Positions 6,574-39,527 of a DNA stretch of 42,322 bases are shown one piece after another. Positions within the stretch are counted from its first letter, which is position 1. Every line of letters starts with the position of its first letter. The DNA is from a virus (Duplodnaviria; Heunggongvirae; Uroviricota; Caudoviricetes), in IMG/VR virus record IMGVR_UViG_2541047730_000004; one strand, 5' to 3'. Made by a program: the position numbers and the translations under genes. Under the pieces are notes generated by a model. The model saw nothing but the letters and a program-made list of their open reading frames with translations, did not search any database and had not been told where the DNA came from.

Positions 6574-6590
6574 ATTACCTTTCAGGTGAT
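6574..6590. promoter_or_regulatory. Operator-like palindrome ATTACCTTTCAGGTGAT (TTACC-N5-GGTRA family)
   Basis: Matches the motif repeated at 12 or more intergenic sites; an additional half-site lies at 6525-6529. Confidence 0.45.
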
Positions 6591-6626: not shown

Positions 6627-6646
6627 TACTGTATAAATATACAGTT
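6627..6646. promoter_or_regulatory. LexA box (SOS box)
   Basis: ATACTGTATAAATATACAGTTA: CTGT-N8-ACAG with an AT-only spacer and consensus-like flanks, ending 6 bp before the ATG at 6652. Confidence 0.75.
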
Positions 6647-6651
6647 ATTGC

Positions 6652-6924
6652 ATGGAGAAGATTAAGATGCAGCAGTATCACTATCCACTGGAAGACGGAT
6701 TTACCGAAAGGATTCACACGCCGGGAGGCGTCAGGTCACTGGTGGAGGGATCGCACTTGATGAAATTACTCCGGGATCTCGATAAGGATGGATTTAATGT
6801 CGATGGCCCACTTGCCGAACTGACTGCACTGATTAACTACGTCACCAGCTCACAGATGTCTATGCGGGATCTGCAAACACATCTCGACTATTGTGCCGAA
6901 CAATTACGAAAACAAACCACATAA
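6652..6924 (+). CDS. Small stand-alone antirepressor-C-terminal-domain protein, candidate SOS-inducible antirepressor
   Basis: Shares a diverged domain (RSLV..S.LM.LL..L..DG..V.G..AELT....YV......M.DLQTH..Y) with the C-termini of both Ant-like proteins at 8074..8730 and 9513..10451. LexA box immediately upstream. Alternative start at 6667 has a well-spaced GGAG RBS. Confidence 0.55.
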   Translation: MEKIKMQQYHYPLEDGFTERIHTPGGVRSLVEGSHLMKLLRDLDKDGFNVDGPLAELTALINYVTSSQMSMRDLQTHLDYCAEQLRKQTT

Positions 6925-6928
6925 AGAA

Positions 6929-6950
6929 AAGGCCGCAAGAGCGGCCTATC
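6929..6950. terminator. Bidirectional terminator between convergent genes
   Basis: GGCCGC-AAGA-GCGGCC hairpin flanked by an A-rich and a T-rich tract. Confidence 0.6.
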
Positions 6951-7674
6951 GTTTCGCTTTGTGCTCGTCCCAGCACGTTTTGCACCATGCCATTAAGCCA
7001 TCCGCATTTTGATTATTAGGGTAAAAACTGGTTCGTTTTCTGCGGACATTACAAATTGGGCACCACTTCATATGGCGTGTATTCTTTGGGCCATCGAGAC
7101 ACCTTGCACACCACTTAGTCAATCCATCTGGATTTTTTGACGATTTCCTGAATTTTCCATATGGAAGGGTTATTCTGCATCGCAAACACTGCTTGCGGGC
7201 ACTTGAAACTTCGTTAGCTGATTCTTCTTTTGACGGCGATACAGAAGGTATTCTTGCTGGCTCTGATACTGCCTGAGGTGCTTTTTTAGGTGACTGAGAC
7301 GATGTGTCATCACCAGGGAATCTTCCATGATATGCCGGACGCGTTGACACTCCAGGTGGAAGCTCTGCTGTAAATGGCTTTGGCTGAATCAGTTGCCTCT
7401 CTTTTGCTAACTCCTGCTGTTTATAATATGTCTGGATTACCGCACTATCATAAGCAGGAGGTGCGGAAATATTAGGCGCATTACCTCCAGTTTTTTGAAA
7501 CTGAGTAGAGGTGTGTTCTATCACCTGTGTACGATTAATCGTTATCTCCCCATCTTCGGTCTTTATCGTTTTGTTATGATTAACGACCGTACGATCAGAG
7601 ATCTTAGTCTTGTTCTGGTTGATAACGTAAATAATCACCGCAACCACACCAACAACTATCCAGAAAACTTCCAT
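6946..7674 (-). CDS. Membrane-anchored protein with tandem Cys-rich (zinc-ribbon-like) repeats; function unknown
   Basis: N-terminal transmembrane helix (VFWIVVGVVAVIIYVI), Pro/Ser-rich linker, then four CxxC pairs in two internal repeats (NPDGLTKWCARC / NADGLMAWCKTC). Confidence 0.55.
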   Translation of the reverse strand: MEVFWIVVGVVAVIIYVINQNKTKISDRTVVNHNKTIKTEDGEITINRTQVIEHTSTQFQKTGGNAPNISAPPAYDSAVIQTYYKQQELAKERQLIQPKPFTAELPPGVSTRPAYHGRFPGDDTSSQSPKKAPQAVSEPARIPSVSPSKEESANEVSSARKQCLRCRITLPYGKFRKSSKNPDGLTKWCARCLDGPKNTRHMKWCPICNVRRKRTSFYPNNQNADGLMAWCKTCWDEHKAKR

Positions 7675-7692: not shown

Positions 7693-7711
7693 TATTACCT
7701 TAAAGGTAATA
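7693..7711. promoter_or_regulatory. Operator palindrome TATTACC-TTAAA-GGTAATA (perfect 7-5-7)
   Basis: Perfect inverted repeat in the divergent intergenic region between 6946..7674 (-) and 8074..8730 (+). Confidence 0.6.
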
Positions 7712-7742
7712 TCTTGCTTTCAGGTGATCAAGCGTTAAACGC

Positions 7743-7764
7743 AATCAACCAAATACGGTTGATT
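7743..7764. promoter_or_regulatory. Second, different palindrome AATCAACC-AAATAC-GGTTGATT
   Basis: 8-bp perfect inverted arms; distinct from the TTACC/GGTAA motif; same regulatory region. Confidence 0.35.
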
Positions 7765-7786
7765 TTTATATTTATCAGCGTTTATC

Positions 7787-7804
7787 ATTACCTTTGCGGT
7801 AAAT
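7787..7804. promoter_or_regulatory. Operator palindrome ATTACC-TTTGC-GGTAAAT
   Basis: TTACC-N5-GGTAA family. Confidence 0.5.
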
Positions 7805-7894
7805 TTACATCGCACTCCTCTTGTGCCATAGTAATCGGGCACTGGCAAAATCCAGTGCCGGGATTGGTCTCCCGGATTACTAAGTGGCGCATAC

Positions 7895-7917
7895 CACGCC
7901 AGACGTGGTTTTTTTAT
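7895..7917 (+). terminator. Intrinsic terminator-like hairpin inside the 400-bp leader upstream of the AntA-like gene
   Basis: CCACG-CCAGA-CGTGG followed by TTTTTTT; a longer stem-loop (GCACTGG...CCAGTGC) lies at about 7838-7862. Confidence 0.4.
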
Positions 7918-8073
7918 GCGTATAGCACAGTCATGCCAGAATTATGGTGGGCTGAATGGGGGTCCGAAAGGACGCCGGTACCACTTAGGCCGGTAAGACC
8001 AACTCCGTTCAGTTCACCACCATCTGATTGGTCTCAGCGGTGGTGATGTAATTCGCTAAGTGGAGACGCCATC

Positions 8074-8730
8074 ATGAACGCTCAACTCATCCCCGTATTC
8101 AACGGCACTATATCTAACGAAACAGCCCTACTTTGTAATGCCCGCGATCTGCACGCTTTTTTAGGTGTTAAAAAGGTGTTTGCAGCATGGATTACAAATC
8201 GCATATCAGAATACGAATTCATTGAAAATCAAGACTATATTTTGCTTTCCAATTTGGGAAAGCAAACATCTGGTAGAGGCGGCCACAACCGCAAAGAGTA
8301 CCACCTCACCCTTGATACAGCCAAAGAGCTGGCGATGGTCGAGCGTAACGAAAAAGGTCGCCAGGTGCGACGCTACTTCATTGAATGCGAGAAACGTTTA
8401 AGACAACAAGAAACAAAAGTGGAGAAGGTCTTGTCAGGCTTCATGCCCGCCATTATGGAGGCGATCAAGCTGGAAGACAAAAAAGAATACAGCGCCCCAC
8501 TGAAGCCCGGCTACCGTAGCCTGATTCATTCGCCGTCTGGTGTTCTCGGCCTGACGGAGAACTCACTGCTGATGAATTTGCTGAACCAGTTACAGGAAGA
8601 CGGGCATGACGTATCGGGCGCGGCGGCGGAACTGACCACCATGTTCTGCTACATCGTTGGTGTGAGTAAATGCCTGCGTGATATCCAGACGCACGCGGAG
8701 TACATCAACGACAAGGCAGGGTTCTTCTGA
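8074..8730 (+). CDS. Antirepressor, AntA/Bro-N-like N-terminal domain plus shared Ant C-terminal domain
   Basis: N-terminal region (DLHAFLGV...W...[12 protein letters not shown]...[14 protein letters not shown]...RRYFIECEK) is typical of phage antirepressor N-domains; the C-terminal ~75 aa are near-identical to the C-terminus of 9513..10451; RBS GGAGA upstream. Confidence 0.65.
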
Positions 8731-8752
8731 CGGGCGGCGGCACAGGGATGTG
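8498..8752. repeat. Left arm of ~255-bp inverted repeat (about 95% identical to 9489..9746)
   Basis: Direct comparison of the reverse complement: e.g. ggtggtcagttccgccgccgcgcccgatacgtcatgcccgtcttcctgtaactggttcag versus ggttgtcagctccgccgccgcgcccgatacatcatgcccgtcttcctgtaactggttcag. Confidence 0.85.
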
Positions 8753-8795
8753 CTTCTGACATAATCATTTGCGGTGTGATGTAGATTCACGTAAG

Positions 8796-8812
8796 ATTAC
8801 CTTAAAGGTAAA
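8796..8812. promoter_or_regulatory. Operator palindrome ATTACC-TTAAA-GGTAAA overlapping the RBS/start of 8815
   Basis: TTACC-N5-GGTAA family; ends 3 bp before the ATG. Confidence 0.5.
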
Positions 8813-8814
8813 CC

Positions 8815-9039
8815 ATGAGTTTACATGAGGGGGGAAGCATGGAACTGAACATCATCACATTAATGAAAGCGCTTATTGGCGGTGCAGGAAGTGGCTTTGC
8901 TCTTTCTGGCGGGCTGTCTATGATCATACCTACTTTCACAGTGACGACTGGCGTTGCCTACCTTTTTGCCATTACTGGCGGTCTGGCTATGGCAGGTACT
9001 TACATTTTAAAAAAAATGAGTTCCGGTAGTGCAGACTGA
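8815..9039 (+). CDS. Small glycine-zipper membrane protein (cargo; toxin/holin-like or bacteriocin-like)
   Basis: 74 aa, Gly/Ala-rich transmembrane segments (GGAGSGFALSGG, ITGGLAMAG). Lies in the segment bracketed by the inverted repeats. Alternative start at 8839. Confidence 0.45.
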   Translation: MSLHEGGSMELNIITLMKALIGGAGSGFALSGGLSMIIPTFTVTTGVAYLFAITGGLAMAGTYILKKMSSGSAD

Positions 9040-9376
9040 GATCGTACAAGAATCACATTGGTACAATCCACAGACCGCTCAGGAGCTGGCGATCTTTTAT
9101 TGTATCCTTTGCATTGTGTATATAGTAATCCACCTGATATGGGATTTTCTCTCAAAAGAGACTGGTAGGTTTTCTGTTGTTAACCTTCAGTACAAACTGA
9201 ATGAGGTATATTCATCAACCACATTCGCAACGAGTGGTTTTTTCCTCGTTATGTTATGCGACATGAATAACCCTCTTAGAACATCAGATGCGTTTATCAT
9301 ACCGCTTATCTTGGCAATGCTTACTGGATTCATGATATCAATATCCGCAATAGCGCCAAAAAAAGTTAACATTTAA
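9029..9376 (+). CDS. Small polytopic membrane protein (cargo; possible immunity/partner protein)
   Basis: 115 aa with about three hydrophobic helices; start overlaps the previous gene; intrinsic terminator directly downstream. Confidence 0.45.
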   Translation: MQTEIVQESHWYNPQTAQELAIFYCILCIVYIVIHLIWDFLSKETGRFSVVNLQYKLNEVYSSTTFATSGFFLVMLCDMNNPLRTSDAFIIPLILAMLTGFMISISAIAPKKVNI

Positions 9377-9398
9377 GCCCGCACTGCGGGCTTTTTTG
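9376..9398 (+). terminator. Rho-independent terminator
   Basis: GCCCGC-ACT-GCGGGC followed by TTTTTTG. Confidence 0.65.
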
Positions 9399-9433
9399 TG
9401 TCTGCGGATTCCCGCCCTGGCGGCGGTGGCATT

Positions 9434-9462
9434 CGTTAAAAACAAGGCCGCGAAAGCGGCCT
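9434..9462 (-). terminator. Rho-independent terminator downstream of ant
   Basis: GGCCGC-GAAA-GCGGCC hairpin followed on the minus strand by TTGTTTTTAAC; a perfect 12-bp palindrome GTGACATGTCAC (9463-9474) abuts it. Confidence 0.55.
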
Positions 9463-9488
9463 GTGACATGTCACGATAGTTCAGTTTT

Positions 9489-9746
9489 GCACATCCCTGT
9501 GCCGCCGTTCTGTCAGAAGAACCCTGCCTTGTCGTTGATGTACTCCGCGTGCGTCTGGATATCACGCAGGCATTTGCTCACACCAACGATGTAGCAGAAC
9601 ATGGTTGTCAGCTCCGCCGCCGCGCCCGATACATCATGCCCGTCTTCCTGTAACTGGTTCAGCAGATTCATCAGCAGTGAGTGCTCCGTCAGGCCGAGAA
9701 CACCAGACGGAGAATGAATCAGGCTGCGGTAGCCGGGCTTCAGCGG
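9489..9746. repeat. Right arm of ~255-bp inverted repeat (pairs with 8498..8752)
   Basis: See left arm; covers the 3' end of ant on the minus strand plus about 25 bp past its stop codon. Confidence 0.85.
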
Positions 9747-10451
9747 ATAACCATAACATTTTGTCTGTGTTTTAATTGCCTCACGAAGCGCATCTAACAT
9801 CTTGACTGCCACTTCATCATTCTCTGATGCAGATCCAGCAGGGAGATACTCCCCTTCAAGCGGAACCCGAGCAACAAGAGACAACGCTTCGGCGAATTGA
9901 TCTTCATCAATTTCTTTGTACGAACAGCCAAAATGAGATTTCAGTGACGACCACATGGTGATCATCGCCTTAGCCTGTTTTTCTTTTGGCAGAGACTGAC
10001 CGCGACTCATGACGAGTTGTTTAATGGCTTCCTGCTGTTCAGTGGTGATTTTACCCGGCAACGCCTTTTTAGCTTTGCGTGGGTTAACTACATGGCCTTT
10101 AGTCCAGTAATCGTAGAGCACATCGTCACACTCTTCCTGATACTGGATTACCTTGTCGCGGATTTCAGGGCGTACTTTGTTTGGACTGATGCTGTTCAAC
10201 CAAGCTGCCAATTTTCGTAAAGCCATACAAATCATGGCTTGCACCCCACCGGCAGAAGGTATGGTGATTTCCACCATACCCTTCGAGAAGCGTTGAGAAA
10301 TCTTCTTATGTTGAGATTTCCAGTCTAGCCCCATTCCCTCAACGATAGGTTTCATTGGGGTATACGGTTCACCGTTGTGATTGACAACATAAAGCTCTGC
10401 GCCGTGGAATGGCACGTTGATAGTAGATACCGCTGTTGCTATACTCGTCAT
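9513..10451 (-). CDS. Antirepressor (P22 Ant-like position and architecture)
   Basis: 312 aa directly downstream of an Arc-like RHH gene and divergent from a Mnt-like RHH gene (P22 immI layout); N-terminal domain differs from 8074..8730 but the C-terminal ~75 aa are shared. Confidence 0.65.
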   Translation of the reverse strand: MTSIATAVSTINVPFHGAELYVVNHNGEPYTPMKPIVEGMGLDWKSQHKKISQRFSKGMVEITIPSAGGVQAMICMALRKLAAWLNSISPNKVRPEIRDKVIQYQEECDDVLYDYWTKGHVVNPRKAKKALPGKITTEQQEAIKQLVMSRGQSLPKEKQAKAMITMWSSLKSHFGCSYKEIDEDQFAEALSLVARVPLEGEYLPAGSASENDEVAVKMLDALREAIKTQTKCYGYPLKPGYRSLIHSPSGVLGLTEHSLLMNLLNQLQEDGHDVSGAAAELTTMFCYIVGVSKCLRDIQTHAEYINDKAGFF

Positions 10452-10523
10452 GTCGTTAATTCCTATACGTAGTTTTACGATACTGAAGCCCTGACGGTCT
10501 GGCCACCGTTGGGCTTCGCTGTT

Positions 10524-10691
10524 TTATGCCACGCTATTCTTCTCACCAGTGAGTCCATACACTTTCCTCAGCTGATAGATAATCTCTGTATTGAACTTTC
10601 GGCATTCTTTTTCGCCATTTCTTTCAATAGCTAACTTCACATCGTCCGGAAAACGAACTCGTCGTTGACACATCTCTTTTGCTTTTTGCAT
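10524..10691 (-). CDS. Arc-like ribbon-helix-helix repressor
   Basis: MQKAKEMCQRRVRFPDDVKLAIERNGEKECRKFNTEIIYQLRKVY: beta-strand RVRFP followed by two helices, ~56 aa; AGGAGA RBS 6 nt before this ATG. The longer ORF to 10727 would run through the operator palindrome. Confidence 0.65.
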   Translation of the reverse strand: MQKAKEMCQRRVRFPDDVKLAIERNGEKECRKFNTEIIYQLRKVYGLTGEKNSVA

Positions 10692-10705
10692 TTCATATCT
10701 CCTTA

Positions 10706-10720
10706 GCCCCACGGTGGGGC
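10706..10720. promoter_or_regulatory. Operator palindrome GCCCCAC-G-GTGGGGC; first of three CAC(C/G)GTG elements
   Basis: Perfect 7-1-7 inverted repeat between divergent arc-like and mnt-like genes; related elements CACCGTG (10734-10740) and CACGGTG (10759-10765). Confidence 0.55.
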
Positions 10721-10811
10721 AAAACAATTGTCACACCGTGCGTCATTGATGTCAAGCACACGGTGAGGCATACTTCAATCATTGCAAGTAACTCAATATT
10801 TGGTGAAGAAC

Positions 10812-11243
10812 ATGAGCAGAGAAGATCCACAACTAAGGATCAGACTTCCCGTTGAAGTAAAAGAAAAAATAGAAATTTCTGCAAAAGCCAATAAGCGATC
10901 AATGAACGCTGAAATAGTACAACGTCTTGACACCAGCTTTCTGAAAGATATTCATGAAGATGACGTAATTTCTGCTTATGAAGCAAAAATTATTGCAAAC
11001 AATGCACGGCATGAAATATCAAATATTATTTTCAAAAGAACCTTTAATGAAATTAATAAGAAAATAACACTTGGACATACAAGTTTTTATATAAACCTTA
11101 ATGACCTTGAACTGGAATCACTTGCAGATAATGATTACCAGATCATCTTTGAAAAAACATTTAATAAGCTCAATGAACTAGGTTACATCATCTGTGAAAA
11201 CTCATGGGATGCAGATGGTTTTGGAATTGAAATACCTGAATAG
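10812..11243 (+). CDS. Mnt-like ribbon-helix-helix repressor with a long C-terminal extension
   Basis: PQLRIRLPVEVKEKIEISAKANKRSMNAEIVQRL is an Arc/Mnt-type RHH; divergent from arc-ant; the AT-rich C-terminal ~80 aa have no recognisable motif. Confidence 0.6.
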   Translation: MSREDPQLRIRLPVEVKEKIEISAKANKRSMNAEIVQRLDTSFLKDIHEDDVISAYEAKIIANNARHEISNIIFKRTFNEINKKITLGHTSFYINLNDLELESLADNDYQIIFEKTFNKLNELGYIICENSWDADGFGIEIPE

Positions 11244-11285: not shown

Positions 11286-11897
11286 TTGAAAAACGCCACA
11301 TTACTGATGTATGTTACAACAAGGAGCGATATTTTGAAAACCATATCTATATTAAAGGTTGCATTAGGCGTCGCTATTATTTTGACTCTCTCAATATTGT
11401 TTTATTTTTACCACAAAAAAAATGCTATTGCTCTTGATGGTCACGCGGCAAACTCATTTTTCTCAGAGTACATAGTGCCGCTATCAGGAAGCGGTATAAC
11501 AAATAAATATACTGACTATGACATCAAATATGGAATTGATGATGGGGAGACTATTGTATTACATGTAATCATTAAAAACCTAATGACAGTAAATAAAAAT
11601 ACAGACTTCAACGATAAAAATACAATACATCACAACAACAGCAAAACATTAATTTCTTATAGTAGCAACATCTATACGGATAAATACCTAAAATACATCT
11701 CAGAAGATACAATAAAAGCAACCAGCGAAAAGTTAAAAAACATATATTGTGCATCCGGCAGTTTTCACAAATTATCGCCGCAGGAGCGTTTATTCTACGA
11801 AGCAAGAAAACAACGTAAGTCAATAATATTACATTATTATGCTGATTCAGGGGAGTCACTCATATTTAATATTGGGGTTTCCCCTGAATCATGCTAA
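11286..11897 (+). CDS. AT-rich membrane-anchored protein at the P22 sieA-equivalent position (candidate superinfection-exclusion/defence cargo)
   Basis: Single N-terminal transmembrane helix (ILKVALGVAIILTLSILFYFY) then an Asn/Lys/Tyr-rich domain; strongly AT-rich; sits between the last internal-core gene and mnt, co-oriented with mnt. Start uncertain. Confidence 0.45.
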   Translation: MKNATLLMYVTTRSDILKTISILKVALGVAIILTLSILFYFYHKKNAIALDGHAANSFFSEYIVPLSGSGITNKYTDYDIKYGIDDGETIVLHVIIKNLMTVNKNTDFNDKNTIHHNNSKTLISYSSNIYTDKYLKYISEDTIKATSEKLKNIYCASGSFHKLSPQERLFYEARKQRKSIILHYYADSGESLIFNIGVSPESC

Positions 11898-26946: not shown

Positions 26947-26966
26947 TTATTACCTTTCAGGTAACT
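26947..26966. promoter_or_regulatory. Operator palindrome ATTATTACC-TTTCA-GGTAACT upstream of the virion operon
   Basis: TTACC-N5-GGTAA family; a TTGACA hexamer lies at 26928-26933 on the plus strand. Confidence 0.5.
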
Positions 26967-27449: not shown

Positions 27450-27526
27450 CAGCAGGACGCCATTGCGATGACTTCATGCTGTAAACCAGTACAGCCACGG
27501 AAGGCATAACTCATTGCTTCCAGTTC

Positions 27527-27565: not shown

Positions 27566-27582
27566 ATTACCTTAAAGGTATA
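27566..27582. promoter_or_regulatory. Operator palindrome ATTACC-TTAAA-GGTATAA overlapping a consensus -10 (TATAAT 27578-27583)
   Basis: TTACC-N5-GGTAT; TATAAT hexamer; candidate -35 TTGATG at 27553-27558. Confidence 0.5.
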
Positions 27583-34235: not shown

Positions 34236-34254
34236 TATTACCTAGCAGGTAATA
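34236..34254. promoter_or_regulatory. Operator palindrome TATTACC-TAGCA-GGTAATA (perfect 7-5-7)
   Basis: Between the P-like gene end and the nin-like block. Confidence 0.55.
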
Positions 34255-36182: not shown

Positions 36183-36199
36183 ATTACCTTTAAGGTGCG
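36183..36199. promoter_or_regulatory. Operator-like site ATTACC-TTTAA-GGTGCGA
   Basis: TTACC-N5-GGTG; between the cro-like gene and the cII-position gene. Confidence 0.4.
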
Positions 36200-36638: not shown

Positions 36639-37223
36639 ATGAAAAGTATCCAGGACGTCCGCAGGCAAAATCTCAACGACTTGATCGACCGTGAATTCAA
36701 TGGTGTTCAGACGCGGATGGCAGAAAAACTTGGAACTCAGGCAAATCTGGTAAACCGCTGGGCTCTTGGCAAGAAGGTTATCGGCGACCAGGTTGCGCGA
36801 AAAATTGAAGCTGCCGCCAATAAACCACGTAACTGGCTTGATATCGATCGCTCGCTTTCTCAGGAAGGTTTTCAGCCTGTCGGCCCAAGCGACATTGGTC
36901 AGCTGGCGGCTCACAACCTGGAACGCTGGATGAGCGAAAGCCGCGACCTTTCAACACAGGGAAAACTTCACCGCGCATCCGGCGTCGCCCAGGTGACAAT
37001 CAGCCGCCTGTTAAACAATGAGGTCAGCGTTTCCATTTCCACCCTGGAGAATGTTGCATCCGCATTCGGGCGTCACGGCTATGAATTACTGATTCACCCG
37101 CACGACCCTGCGACCATCAACTATGACCGCTCGCGCTACGCATTGTTACCCGAAACCGAGAAAGCAAAGATCGAAAGTTATATTGAATTTGTCATCAACC
37201 AGAACGAAAAAAACAAACAATAA
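36639..37223 (+). CDS. CI-like repressor with two HTH (XRE-type) segments and no LexA-like peptidase domain
   Basis: HTH-like RMAEKLGTQANLVNRWALGKK and ASGVAQVTISRLLNNEVSVSISTLENVASAFG. No Ala-Gly / GDSM / Lys autocleavage signature. Divergent from cro; terminator and OL-like sites downstream. Confidence 0.65.
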   Translation: MKSIQDVRRQNLNDLIDREFNGVQTRMAEKLGTQANLVNRWALGKKVIGDQVARKIEAAANKPRNWLDIDRSLSQEGFQPVGPSDIGQLAAHNLERWMSESRDLSTQGKLHRASGVAQVTISRLLNNEVSVSISTLENVASAFGRHGYELLIHPHDPATINYDRSRYALLPETEKAKIESYIEFVINQNEKNKQ

Positions 37224-37278: not shown

Positions 37279-37297
37279 TATTACCTAATAGGTAATT
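37279..37297. promoter_or_regulatory. OL-equivalent operator 1: TATTACC-TAATA-GGTAATT
   Basis: Near-perfect palindrome upstream of the plus-strand early operon. Confidence 0.6.
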
Positions 37298-37340: not shown

Positions 37341-37359
37341 TATTACCTCAACGGTAACA
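37341..37359. promoter_or_regulatory. OL-equivalent operator 2: TATTACC-TCAAC-GGTAACA, with TTGACA (37315-37320) upstream
   Basis: TTACC-N5-GGTAA; followed by the direct repeat GGTAACAGACCGAGGTAAC. Confidence 0.55.
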
Positions 37360-37531: not shown

Positions 37532-37831
37532 ATGAACGTTAATCAGCAGAAAAATCTTCAAAAAATCATGCTGGCATTCGACAAGGACTACCGCCTGTCA
37601 GAACAGCTATATGACCGACAAGTTGAACTGATCGAGAGCATCCGGCTTCATCAACTGGCCTCAACTTTTGACGCTGTAACAGGCAAAGGAGTTCGCCAGG
37701 AAGTGCTGGAGGCAGCTAAAGACAGCCCTGAGTTCGAAGAACTTATGGATGCCTACCGGCGCGAGGCAATGGCAATTATCGCCCGCTGGGATCTGGCGGA
37801 TCGGATTGATGGGCAGAGGGAAGCGGCATGA
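37532..37831 (+). CDS. Hypothetical early protein
   Basis: 99 aa, helical/charged; start ATG directly after the previous stop. Confidence 0.45.
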   Translation: MNVNQQKNLQKIMLAFDKDYRLSEQLYDRQVELIESIRLHQLASTFDAVTGKGVRQEVLEAAKDSPEFEELMDAYRREAMAIIARWDLADRIDGQREAA

Positions 37832-38649
37832 AACCGGGAATTTATTTCGACATCAGCAACGAAGACTACCACGCCGGTGACGGCGTGAGTAAGTCGCAAC
37901 TGGACATGGTTGCCAAGAATCCGGCGCTTCTTAAATGGGTTCAGGCAGCACCAGAAGACGAAGAGAAAAAGTCTGCACTGGATATGGGAACCGCATTGCA
38001 CTGTCTGCTTCTGGAGCCTGGAGAATTCGACAAACGCTTCATTGTTTCACCGAAGTTCGATCGTCGGACAAAACAAGGTAAAGCTGACGAAGAAGCATTT
38101 CTTCGTGATGTGGCGGATATGGGTATTACGGTACTTGATGTCGAGCAGTGGCGAAAACTGGAGCTGATGCGTGATAGCGCAATGGCTCATCCGGCGGCAC
38201 GCTGGATGCTGGAAGCACCTGGTTACTGCGAAGCATCAATGTACTGGAACGATGAAGAGACGGGTGAGTTGTGCCGAATTCGTCCAGACAAATGGCTGAA
38301 CGAGCACAACGTGATCGTCGACGTGAAAAAGGTTGCAGATATGGACCGTTTTGCACGCCACATCGAGGAATTCCGCTACCACGTGCAGGACGCAATGTAC
38401 CGCGAAGGCGCAATGAGGGTTACTGGTCAGCCGCATGGTTTTTTCTTTCTTGCCGTGAGCGAAAGCATTGATTGTGGTCGGTATCCGGTACGCGTGTTCG
38501 AGCTGGATGCGCCAGATGTCGATGCCGGGCACGCTCTGTTCCGCCGGGATCTGAATACCTATCACGAATGCCGCATCAACGATGAATGGGGCGGAGTGGA
38601 AATTATTAAACGCCCTGACTGGGCACGTAAACAGGATATGTACGTATGA
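37828..38649 (+). CDS. RecE-like exonuclease (PD-(D/E)xK, exodeoxyribonuclease VIII-type domain)
   Basis: N-terminal GIYFDISNEDYHAGDGVSKSQL and a central D...E.K-type core; immediately upstream of recT. Confidence 0.7.
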   Translation: MKPGIYFDISNEDYHAGDGVSKSQLDMVAKNPALLKWVQAAPEDEEKKSALDMGTALHCLLLEPGEFDKRFIVSPKFDRRTKQGKADEEAFLRDVADMGITVLDVEQWRKLELMRDSAMAHPAARWMLEAPGYCEASMYWNDEETGELCRIRPDKWLNEHNVIVDVKKVADMDRFARHIEEFRYHVQDAMYREGAMRVTGQPHGFFFLAVSESIDCGRYPVRVFELDAPDVDAGHALFRRDLNTYHECRINDEWGGVEIIKRPDWARKQDMYV

Positions 38650-39527
38650 GCAATGATATCGCAATCACATCACAACCAGGCGCAACTGTAGGCACTGCTG
38701 CGGCAATCTTCAGCCCCGAGGGCATGAATCAACTGGTGCGTTTCGCTGAGTTGATGTCACAAAGCAAAGCGACTGTACCGAAACATCTTGAAGGCAAACC
38801 TGCCGATTGCCTGGCGGTGACCATGCAGGCGGCACAGTGGGGAATGAACCCTTTCGCCGTGGCGCAGAAAACGCATGTGGTAAACGGAACGTTAGGCTAC
38901 GAAGCACAGTTGGTAAACGCGGTCGTATCCTCTTCCAGCCTGCTAGCGACACGCCTGAATTATCGCTGGAGCGGTGACTGGTCGAATGTTAACGGCAAAA
39001 CAGATAAATCACCGAATCTGACGGTAACTGTGTCAGCAGTCCTTAAAGGAGAAGCAGAACCACGTGAGCTTACCATCAGTATGGCGCAAGCCGGAGTGCG
39101 TAACTCTCCATTGTGGGAACAGGATCCGCGCCAGCAACTTGCCTATCTTTGCACGAAACGATGGGCTCGCCTGCACGCTCCTGATGTACTTCTTGGTGTT
39201 TACACCCCTGACGAATTACAGGAAACGGCACCGCGCGTTGAGCGAGACATTACTCCGCAAACAACTACTGCTGCGGGAATGAACAGTCTGATCAACGCTA
39301 AACCAGTGAAAAAGCCTGATGAGCAAACGCGTAAAGCGGATAGCCGTGATCCAGAAGAAATGCTGATGGCCTTTACCAGCGCAGCGATGAATTACAGCAC
39401 TGTCTCCGAACTGGATAAGGCTTACAAATACATTGCACAAAAACTTTCAGATGATGACGAACTGCTGGCAAAAGCCACCGACGTTTACAGCGTTCGTCGG
39501 GAAGAATTAAACGAAACATCTATGTAA
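38646..39527 (+). CDS. recT: RecT single-strand annealing recombinase
   Basis: 293 aa with RecT-family features; coupled to the exonuclease gene. Confidence 0.8.
   Translation: MSNDIAITSQPGATVGTAAAIFSPEGMNQLVRFAELMSQSKATVPKHLEGKPADCLAVTMQAAQWGMNPFAVAQKTHVVNGTLGYEAQLVNAVVSSSSLLATRLNYRWSGDWSNVNGKTDKSPNLTVTVSAVLKGEAEPRELTISMAQAGVRNSPLWEQDPRQQLAYLCTKRWARLHAPDVLLGVYTPDELQETAPRVERDITPQTTTAAGMNSLINAKPVKKPDEQTRKADSRDPEEMLMAFTSAAMNYSTVSELDKAYKYIAQKLSDDDELLAKATDVYSVRREELNETSM

Follow-up and report, generated by a model that had tools for sequence, protein, structure and literature searches.

We analysed a 42,322-nt stretch of viral DNA (IMG/VR record IMGVR_UViG_2541047730_000004, hereafter the window), in which two antirepressor genes point towards each other across a small accessory cassette. 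This DNA is a complete prophage. Escherichia coli AHB29 (NZ_OZ547246.1) carries the same element at 100% identity, inserted between guaA and yfgI, and the window is a guaA-integrated phiV10/epsilon15-like (Uetakevirus-type) prophage related to phiV10, TL-2011b and other phages of the Uetakevirus type. The results described below make it highly probable that homologous recombination between repeats encoding an Ant domain has inverted and exchanged the cassette, in an anti-immunity region that holds three copies of this domain. The core of the locus consists of the following parts, in window coordinates:

8074..8730, plus strand: left antirepressor gene, an AntA N-terminus (PF08346, residues 22-92) joined to an SPC32H-type Ant domain (phrog_450, residues 135-216; homology to Protein Data Bank (PDB) entry 5D50)
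8497..8753, plus strand: left arm of the inverted repeat, codons of the Ant domain followed by 23 nt of 3' untranslated sequence (repeat search and alignment)
8754..9488, plus strand: variable accessory cassette of 735 bp with a palindrome, two open reading frames (ORFs) and two terminators, its cargo varying among 17 related loci
9489..9746, minus strand: right arm of the inverted repeat (repeat search and gapped alignment)
9513..10451, minus strand: right antirepressor gene, a P22_AR_N N-terminus (PF10547, residues 12-121, E 2.5e-45), a middle region and the same Ant domain (phrog_450, residues 230-310)

Because the two antirepressor genes converge, their near-identical 3' ends form an inverted repeat. 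A repeat search of the window paired 8497-8731 with 9512-9746 (235 nt ungapped, 96% complementary, 780 nt apart), and gapped local alignment widened the arms to 8497-8753 and 9489-9746, that is, 257 and 258 nt that differ at 12 places, one of them a 1-nt indel. The similarity extends ~23 nt past the stop codon of both genes. An initial annotation of this DNA had described inverted repeats of ~255 bp and ~95% identity that run about 25 bp beyond each stop, and its arm ends agree with ours to within 1 nt. It had also called the N-terminal domains of the two antirepressors unrelated, and they fall into different Pfam families, AntA (PF08346) on the left and P22_AR_N (PF10547) on the right.

The last 77 residues of the left and right antirepressors have a single difference (N/H), and the 231 coding nucleotides of the arms carry eight synonymous and one non-synonymous differences, corresponding to a synonymous divergence (dS) of 0.16 and a non-synonymous divergence (dN) of 0.006, with dN/dS ~0.04. 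When the same peptide was back-translated with the phage's own codon usage in 5,000 trials, protein conservation alone gave 75.2 +/- 2.2% identity with a maximum of 83.5%, compared with 96.1% observed. Thus the nucleotide identity of the arms goes beyond what the protein requires, and the doubt raised in the initial annotation, that identity might be no higher than amino-acid conservation would produce, is removed.

Next, we searched 5,426 complete E. coli genomes with the sequence joining the right arm to P22_AR_N. This junction was present in 36 of them. In 33 the cassette is placed as in the window, with its terminator end adjoining the right arm; in two, ETEC4085 and SCU-387, the cassette ends are exchanged relative to the conserved flanks; and one, ETEC1749, is chimeric. 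The ratio of 33:2:1 is a rough guide, as many of the 33 are clonally related. A query combining the window's 59-nt cassette left end with the right flank matched no genome at a coverage of at least 80%, and orientation was scored by direct comparison of loci because the inverted loci carry other left-end variants.

Comparison of ETEC4085 with UTAK-6 revealed that the flanks outside each arm are identical at 600 of 600 nt, while the 1,006-bp cassettes match at 1004 of 1006 positions as reverse complements and at 543 positions in direct orientation. The two loci have the same accessions for the left antirepressor and for all three cassette proteins. Their left arms are identical and their right arms differ at 15 sites, 13 of which make the ETEC4085 right arm match the left arm, forming a conversion tract. 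In a second pair, SCU-387 and KC-Dl-1, the arm-cassette-arm segment is 98.3% identical over 1,581 nt as reverse complement between collinear flanks, and the cassettes, with a cargo unlike that of the first pair, agree at 1060 of 1065 positions. In both pairs, cassette proteins with identical accessions occur in both orientations. Since two different cargos are each found both ways round, these comparisons suggest at least two independent inversion events.

The chimeric locus ETEC1749 (locus L006, NZ_CP122712.1, 2444-4500) resembles TL-2011b in its left half and ETEC4085 in its right half, and the halves meet at a palindromic terminator that they share. Both ends of its cassette, one at each arm, are of the promoter type, and the cargo is convergent, with a YafO toxin gene on the plus strand and two small ORFs on the minus strand; the 162-bp gene for a membrane anchor that is usual at this position is missing. 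The locus apparently arose by recombination between a window-like and an inverted parent. The inverted repeat had been proposed as a substrate for homologous inversion, and the ETEC4085/UTAK-6 and SCU-387/KC-Dl-1 pairs provide the inverted isoforms in nature. Inversion had further been expected to flip the cassette and to swap the C-terminal domains; the flip is seen, but the swap is nearly silent for the proteins because the two Ant copies differ by one residue.

To compare the arms themselves, we used 28 arms from 14 loci. There were no fixed left/right differences among them, and 28 of the 47 variable sites were polymorphic in both the left and the right set. Arms of the same group differed on average at 10.6 sites and arms of opposite groups at 12.3, a gap that none of 2,000 label permutations reached, so left/right differentiation is weak yet significant. 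Left and right arms of one genome differ at 10.6 sites, against 12.3 between the groups overall, indicating weak concerted evolution within genomes. The arms thus behave as what appears to be one partly mixed pool, which would require repeated left-right exchange.

We then asked what the arms encode. The C-terminus common to both antirepressors belongs to phrog_450, and PHROGs places ORF 6652-6924 in the same family. An AlphaFold 2 model of the shared domain (predicted local distance difference test score 79.5) is mostly helical. The only PDB matches in Foldseek were chains G/H of 5D50 (Ant), at 38-39% identity and template modelling scores of 0.59-0.72, and a profile of the domain matched 5d50_E, 'Anti-repressor protein', with E 4e-33; a fold search of BFVD gave no significant match. 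The family is small, an exhaustive search of 1.84 billion representatives having yielded 34 clusters at 50% identity. Its members are either free-standing (~85-95 residues) or form the C-terminus of proteins of 183-319 residues. A separate homologue search with the 84-residue domain returned 17 short fragments only and no architectures. Together, these matches indicate that the arms probably encode the antirepressor domain proper, a predicted SPC32H-type Ant. The initial annotation was therefore right that the two genes share an 'antirepressor C-terminal domain', but homology to 5D50 argues that this is the Ant itself and not an accessory tail.

A third copy of the domain stands alone to the left of the fused genes, and a likely target of all three lies further along the prophage:

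6629..6644, strand not assigned: LexA box CTGTATAAATATACAG, an exact CTGT-N8-ACAG match just upstream of the free-standing ant
6667..6924, open frame from 6652, plus strand: free-standing antirepressor gene, third copy of the domain and SPC32H Ant orthologue (phrog_450, E 3.8e-48; WP_001188255.1)
36639..37223, plus strand: prophage repressor gene, SPC32H Rep homologue and likely target of the Ant domain (phmmer against PDB: 5d50_A 'Repressor', E 4e-42, residues 1-190)

The free-standing Ant (85 residues, 'hypothetical' in RefSeq) shares 86% identity with the Ant chain of 5D50 and just 38% protein identity with the fused Ant domain; the fused domains are in turn ~38% identical to SPC32H Ant. 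The prophage thus appears to carry three copies of one Ant domain. The window contains two exact CTGT-N8-ACAG matches, at 6629-6644 and 27479-27494. No LexA box precedes either fused Ant gene, where RNA or Arc-type controls are found instead. For the SPC32H Rep-Ant system (Kim & Ryu 2013 and Kim et al. 2016, as cited in PMC7380047 and PMC9638917) we relied on PDB 5D50 and on these secondary papers. PMC9638917 describes SPC32H Ant as a tetramer with two Rep dimers bound, and PMC7380047 states that SPC32H-type Ant is produced after LexA cleavage and that the repressor is inactivated by protein-protein binding. We infer that the fused Ant domains may still bind the prophage's own Rep.

The left antirepressor gene is preceded by the following control elements:

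7694..7803, strand not assigned: left-module promoter region, containing two ATTACC-N5-GGTAAT palindromes (7694-7710 and 7787-7803)
7839..7915, plus strand: isrK-type small RNA or leader with terminator (Rfam RF01394, 67.7 bits; gathering score 50)
7940..8024, plus strand: C4-type antisense RNA element, 5' of the left antirepressor (Rfam RF01695, 61.2 bits; gathering score 45)

Because isrK and C4 lie directly upstream, the left module is assigned by its predicted RNAs to the P1/P7 immI or Gifsy isrK-anrP kind (PMC4825925). A c4-a1b1 target element (RF03163) at 7826-7878 overlaps isrK, with a score of 39.9 bits, below the gathering score of 46.7. No orf45/icd-like coupling ORF was found upstream of the left ant, the frame across the ATG at 8074 being open for 5 codons only. 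Between the free-standing ant and the left module lies an indel that contains a 242-residue ORF (6946-7674, minus strand, phrog_6762) with an N-terminal hydrophobic stretch and C-terminal Cys-rich repeats weakly like HNH/endonuclease VII zinc motifs. This ORF is present in some relatives only (ETEC4085, HB37 and APEC E18055), is a pseudogene in TL-2011b and is missing from most others.

The right antirepressor belongs to a different set of genes:

10453..10520, plus strand: antisense RNA of the sar type, opposite the junction of arc and ant (Rfam RF00262, 45.2 bits; gathering score 43)
10524..10691, minus strand: gene for a small Arc-like repressor, 5' of the right ant (phrog_228, E 2.3e-5 for ORF 10524-10727; WP_001167931.1)
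10812..11243, plus strand: divergent Arc-family repressor gene in the position of mnt (PF03869 Arc, E 1.2e-14 for ORF 10782-11243; 'Arc family DNA-binding protein' in RefSeq)

On the plus strand the sar region has a promoter-like site at 10417-10445 and a terminator-like site at 10496-10515. This gene order and these matches identify the right module as a P22-type immI. Residues 1-222 of the right Ant share 88% identity with the Ant of CUS-3, a P22-like phage; beyond them the two proteins are unrelated, and no Pfam match to P22_AR_C was found in the right Ant. Its homologues in twelve other species align over about residues 1-203 only. The sole full-length homologue outside E. coli, in Klebsiella grimontii, has no inverted repeat of at least 40 nt around it, and the two-arm layout was found only in E. 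coli phiV10-like prophages. On the other side, the left gene of related prophages has an AntA, BRO-N or ORF6N N-terminus on the same arm at the same junction. The domain shuffling put forward in the initial annotation is thus borne out both by the CUS-3 match that stops at residue 222 and by the varied left N-termini that join one arm at one junction, and the arm would seem to be the common joint for shuffling N-terminal domains. An ORF of 187 residues and ~31% GC (11334-11897, plus strand, phrog_8033) sits between the Arc-family gene and a 1,004-residue virion gene, and accompanies the P22-type module in all two-arm loci.

The cassette between the arms contains the following features:

8796-8812, at the promoter (left) end: operator-like palindrome, motif ATTACC-N5-GGTAAT
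8839-9039, plus strand: cassette ORF 1, hydrophobic, 66 residues (phrog_13406), the only cassette ORF annotated by RefSeq
9029-9376, plus strand: cassette ORF 2, hydrophobic, up to 115 residues (phrog_36716)
9375-9393, plus strand: strong terminator-like hairpin
9445-9462, minus strand: strong terminator-like hairpin

A scan for consensus promoters passed no promoter-like site at the cassette's left end. The hydrophobic ORFs, the palindrome and the hairpins fit the picture of two membrane-protein genes with a putative operator of their own and two terminators. The 17-bp palindrome (ATTACCTTAAAGGTAAT) occurs at ten sites in the window, giving 17 strand-hits where 0.05 are expected: 6574-6590, 7694-7710, 7787-7803, 8796-8812, 26949-26965, 27566-27582, 34237-34253, 36183-36199, 37280-37296 and 37342-37358. 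The sites that we checked precede the free-standing ant and the left module, sit at the left end of the cassette or follow closely on rep. The palindrome resembles an operator for a single phage regulator, which may be Rep.

We found at least nine cargo sets among 17 related loci, including a YafO-family toxin, DUF4760, DUF2335 and unnamed ORFs; the initial annotation had called for this comparison of related prophages, and neither of the outcomes that it said would count against it, no inverted isoforms and no cassette variation, was obtained. Pfam and PADLOC searches of the cargo proteins of ten loci added nothing beyond the annotation names. Gene content at this position differs among otherwise related phages, as in a moron or accessory slot. 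HB37 (locus L007, NZ_CP053080.1, 4574-5964) carries the window's left antirepressor and two-ORF cassette at 99% identity and is without the whole right P22-type module; the similarity stops near window position 9464, ~25 nt short of the right arm. Because HB37 carries the window's cargo without the right module, the cassette slot already exists in phages with one antirepressor.

Two small observations concern the cassette sequence. A conserved gene for a 53-residue membrane-anchored protein (WP_000708858.1) reaches with its 3' end into the terminator end of the cassette in most relatives; the window retains only a remnant of that 3' end, at 9401-9439. In addition, a 1-nt indel within 8813-9400, seen as a coordinate offset that shifts by one, separates the window from the otherwise identical RefSeq record. 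A candidate site is the G-run at ~8822-8827, just 5' of the first cassette ORF, and the indel may be a homopolymer sequencing difference.

The prophage also encodes recombination functions of its own:

37828..39527, plus strand: phage recombination genes, a PD-(D/E)XK nuclease-like gene (37828-38649) and recT (38646-39527), RefSeq products matched by gene length to ORFs

Across the whole prophage, RefSeq annotates no invertase, neither a serine invertase nor an extra tyrosine recombinase. Its sole integrase is of the tyrosine type and lies at the far, attachment-site (att) end, ~31 kb from the cassette, so the remark that no site-specific invertase is nearby holds for a prophage whose annotated recombination genes are this integrase, RecT and the PD-(D/E)XK nuclease.

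Taken together, these results can be arranged in the following model. A P22-like ant would have lost its own C-terminus and gained the resident Ant domain by recombinational replacement, which would have created the inverted repeat. General homologous recombination between the arms, catalysed perhaps by host RecA or by the phage RecT/nuclease pair, would then occasionally invert the cassette, and the same arms would let phages exchange cassettes in either orientation. The interval involved would be the moron slot that lies 3' of the left antirepressor in one-antirepressor relatives. Inversion would leave both antirepressors essentially unchanged, and the cassette, including its promoter end and its terminators, would come to lie 3' of the right operon, having lain 3' of the left one; read-through into the cassette might change from the left operon to the right operon accordingly. 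The unchanged left arm, the patchily converted right arm and the crossover seen in ETEC4085 would fit double-strand-break repair between the arms. The three copies of the domain would be placed in three circuits: the LexA-boxed ant, AntA::Ant behind isrK/C4, and P22_AR_N::Ant in the arc/mnt/sar module.

Several points weigh against this model. The evidence for inversion is a comparison between genomes, and does not come from within this strain or any single population. The crossover point is not mappable, as the arms are without fixed left/right differences, and the dS of 0.16 between the window's arms implies no recent homogenisation in this prophage. A distribution of 33:2:1 implies either infrequent events or a preference for one orientation. 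The fused domain is only ~38% identical to SPC32H Ant, so its binding to this Rep is no more than predicted. Two co-resident phages undergoing a double crossover in antiparallel alignment would leave the same result as an intramolecular inversion. Finally, short-read assembly could place a 1-kb segment between 257-bp repeats the wrong way round, a concern against which the ETEC4085 conversion tract argues.

The co-resident-phage scenario leads to the alternative that survives best, although we consider it unlikely: the cassette never flipped in place, and the opposite orientations are cassettes imported from other phages by a double crossover in both arms with the donor antiparallel. The high variability of the cargo, the junction of ETEC1749 at the shared terminator and the single shuffled pool of arms across genomes would all be consistent with import. 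On the other hand, with identical 600-nt flanks and 99.8% identical cassettes in ETEC4085 and UTAK-6, an in-place event is the most economical account. Moreover, import would use the same arms and the same recombination machinery, making it a variant of recombination between the arms and not an alternative to it.

It is distinctly improbable that the locus is a recombinase-free switch, in which RecA or the RecT/nuclease pair flips the cassette at an appreciable frequency within lysogen populations, providing bet-hedging between isrK/C4 and Arc/Mnt/sar control. If this were true, subpopulations would express accessory membrane or toxin genes under different conditions. The 33:2:1 ratio argues for rare evolutionary events and not for a fast switch or rapid neutral flipping.

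Assembly errors make a still poorer explanation of the inverted forms in public genomes. Short reads cannot orient a 1-kb unit between 257-bp repeats and merely three of the 36 genomes deviate, yet the three were assembled independently, in two laboratories, and contain two different cargos. The ETEC4085 right arm has 13 left-type substitutions that mis-orientation could not create, and the promoter-type ends at both arms of ETEC1749 are impossible to obtain by flipping a contig.

We give very little credence to a programmed invertible element served by a site-specific recombinase of the Mu G, P1 C, e14 P or Hin type, perhaps acting in trans from the host or another prophage. Both orientations do occur in nature, and E. 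coli strains can carry Pin-type invertases elsewhere in the genome, which could in principle act here. However, this prophage is without a serine invertase or an extra tyrosine recombinase, its repeats are 257 bp of coding sequence where site-specific invertases use crossover sites of ~26-34 bp, and the orientations are skewed 33:2:1. The conversion at 13 sites is patchy across the arm, and conservative exchange makes no such tract.

Hardly any weight is left for the repeat as a mere by-product of purifying selection on the shared domain, with no recombinational history or consequence: strong protein-level constraint on both copies (dN/dS ~0.04) and the functional antirepressor fold indicated by 5D50 homology would agree with it, but the synonymous-site test (96.1% against 75.2 +/- 2.2%) and the natural inversion pairs refute it, as do the ~23 nt of similarity in non-coding DNA, the 28 of 47 polymorphisms shared between arms and the free-standing paralogue, which is under like constraint and only 38% identical in protein.

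The individual parts of this locus resemble several known systems. Like SPC32H Rep-Ant, the prophage has a LexA-boxed free-standing Ant (86% identical), a Rep homologue and, in both arms, a domain of the same fold and family; in contrast to SPC32H, the domain also occurs twice at the C-terminus of AntA or P22_AR_N proteins, in copies only ~38% identical to SPC32H Ant and under modules that do not use LexA. The right module shares with P22 immI (mnt-arc-ant, sar) its P22_AR_N Ant, Arc-like and divergent Arc-family genes and sar, but it sits in a Uetakevirus-type genome and the C-terminus of its Ant has been replaced by an SPC32H-type Ant. The left module, with isrK and C4 directly before an antirepressor-family gene, resembles P1/P7 immI (c4 RNA-icd-ant) and Gifsy-1 isrK-orf45-anrP (PMC4825925). 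It departs from both in having no orf45/icd-like ORF over the ant start and an SPC32H-type domain in the antirepressor, and its c4 target element is sub-threshold in the P1/P7 comparison.

In Staphylococcus aureus, hsdMS mediates a reversible chromosomal inversion by homologous recombination between inverted paralogues (PMC6778178). There, as here, inverted related coding copies recombine, with signatures across many genomes and both orientations in isolates, but half a chromosome is involved, compared with 1 kb inside one prophage, and our case is read from genome comparison. The locus has the features of inversion by homologous recombination, namely long, near-identical inverted repeats and both orientations in collinear relatives with breakpoints inside the repeats.

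Shuffling of N-terminal domains onto one C-terminal module also has precedents. The AntA, BRO-N, ORF6N and P22_AR_N N-termini that meet one module at one junction are reminiscent of the domain shuffling among KilA-N/Bro-N/ANT-type phage regulators reportedly described by Iyer, Koonin and Aravind in 2002, and the conserved segments flanking exchangeable modules recall the 'boundary sequences' of mosaic phages, which are annotated in CUS-3. Unlike in those regulators, the conserved segment is here present twice and inverted in one genome, and near-isogenic isoforms document its use. Mu G/Gin, P1 C/Cin, e14 P/Pin and Salmonella Hin are invertase-driven invertible segments; they too place phage DNA between inverted repeats in gene 3' ends and are found in both orientations. 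The present locus is not a member of this group: we looked for an invertase and for short crossover sites and found neither, its arms of 257 bp show conversion tracts, and its near-identical C-termini allow no protein switching.

SPC32H-type antirepression, immI control of the P22 and P1/Gifsy types, domain shuffling, moron slots and inversion between inverted paralogues are each known separately. Literature searches on phiV10 or TL-2011b phages returned no description of this architecture, and what appears to be undescribed is the combination, one Rep-targeting domain present three times under three circuits, two copies of which invert and exchange an accessory cassette. The same 257 bp would serve as an antirepressor domain, as a joint for N-terminal shuffling and as the homology that inverts or exchanges an accessory slot. 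With near-isogenic isoforms and a conversion tract, the locus provides a natural example of how a shared protein module makes a prophage region structurally unstable. For assembly and annotation, either orientation of the cassette is to be expected. The NCBI annotation pipeline (PGAP) names the N-terminal domains only (AntA, Bro-N and P22_AR_N) and never the shared Ant, which is the likeliest carrier of antirepressor function. Finally, one phage may couple one repressor-targeting domain to three inputs, LexA/SOS, isrK/C4 RNA and P22-type Arc/Mnt/sar, and this three-input wiring would be a testable model of multi-signal prophage induction.

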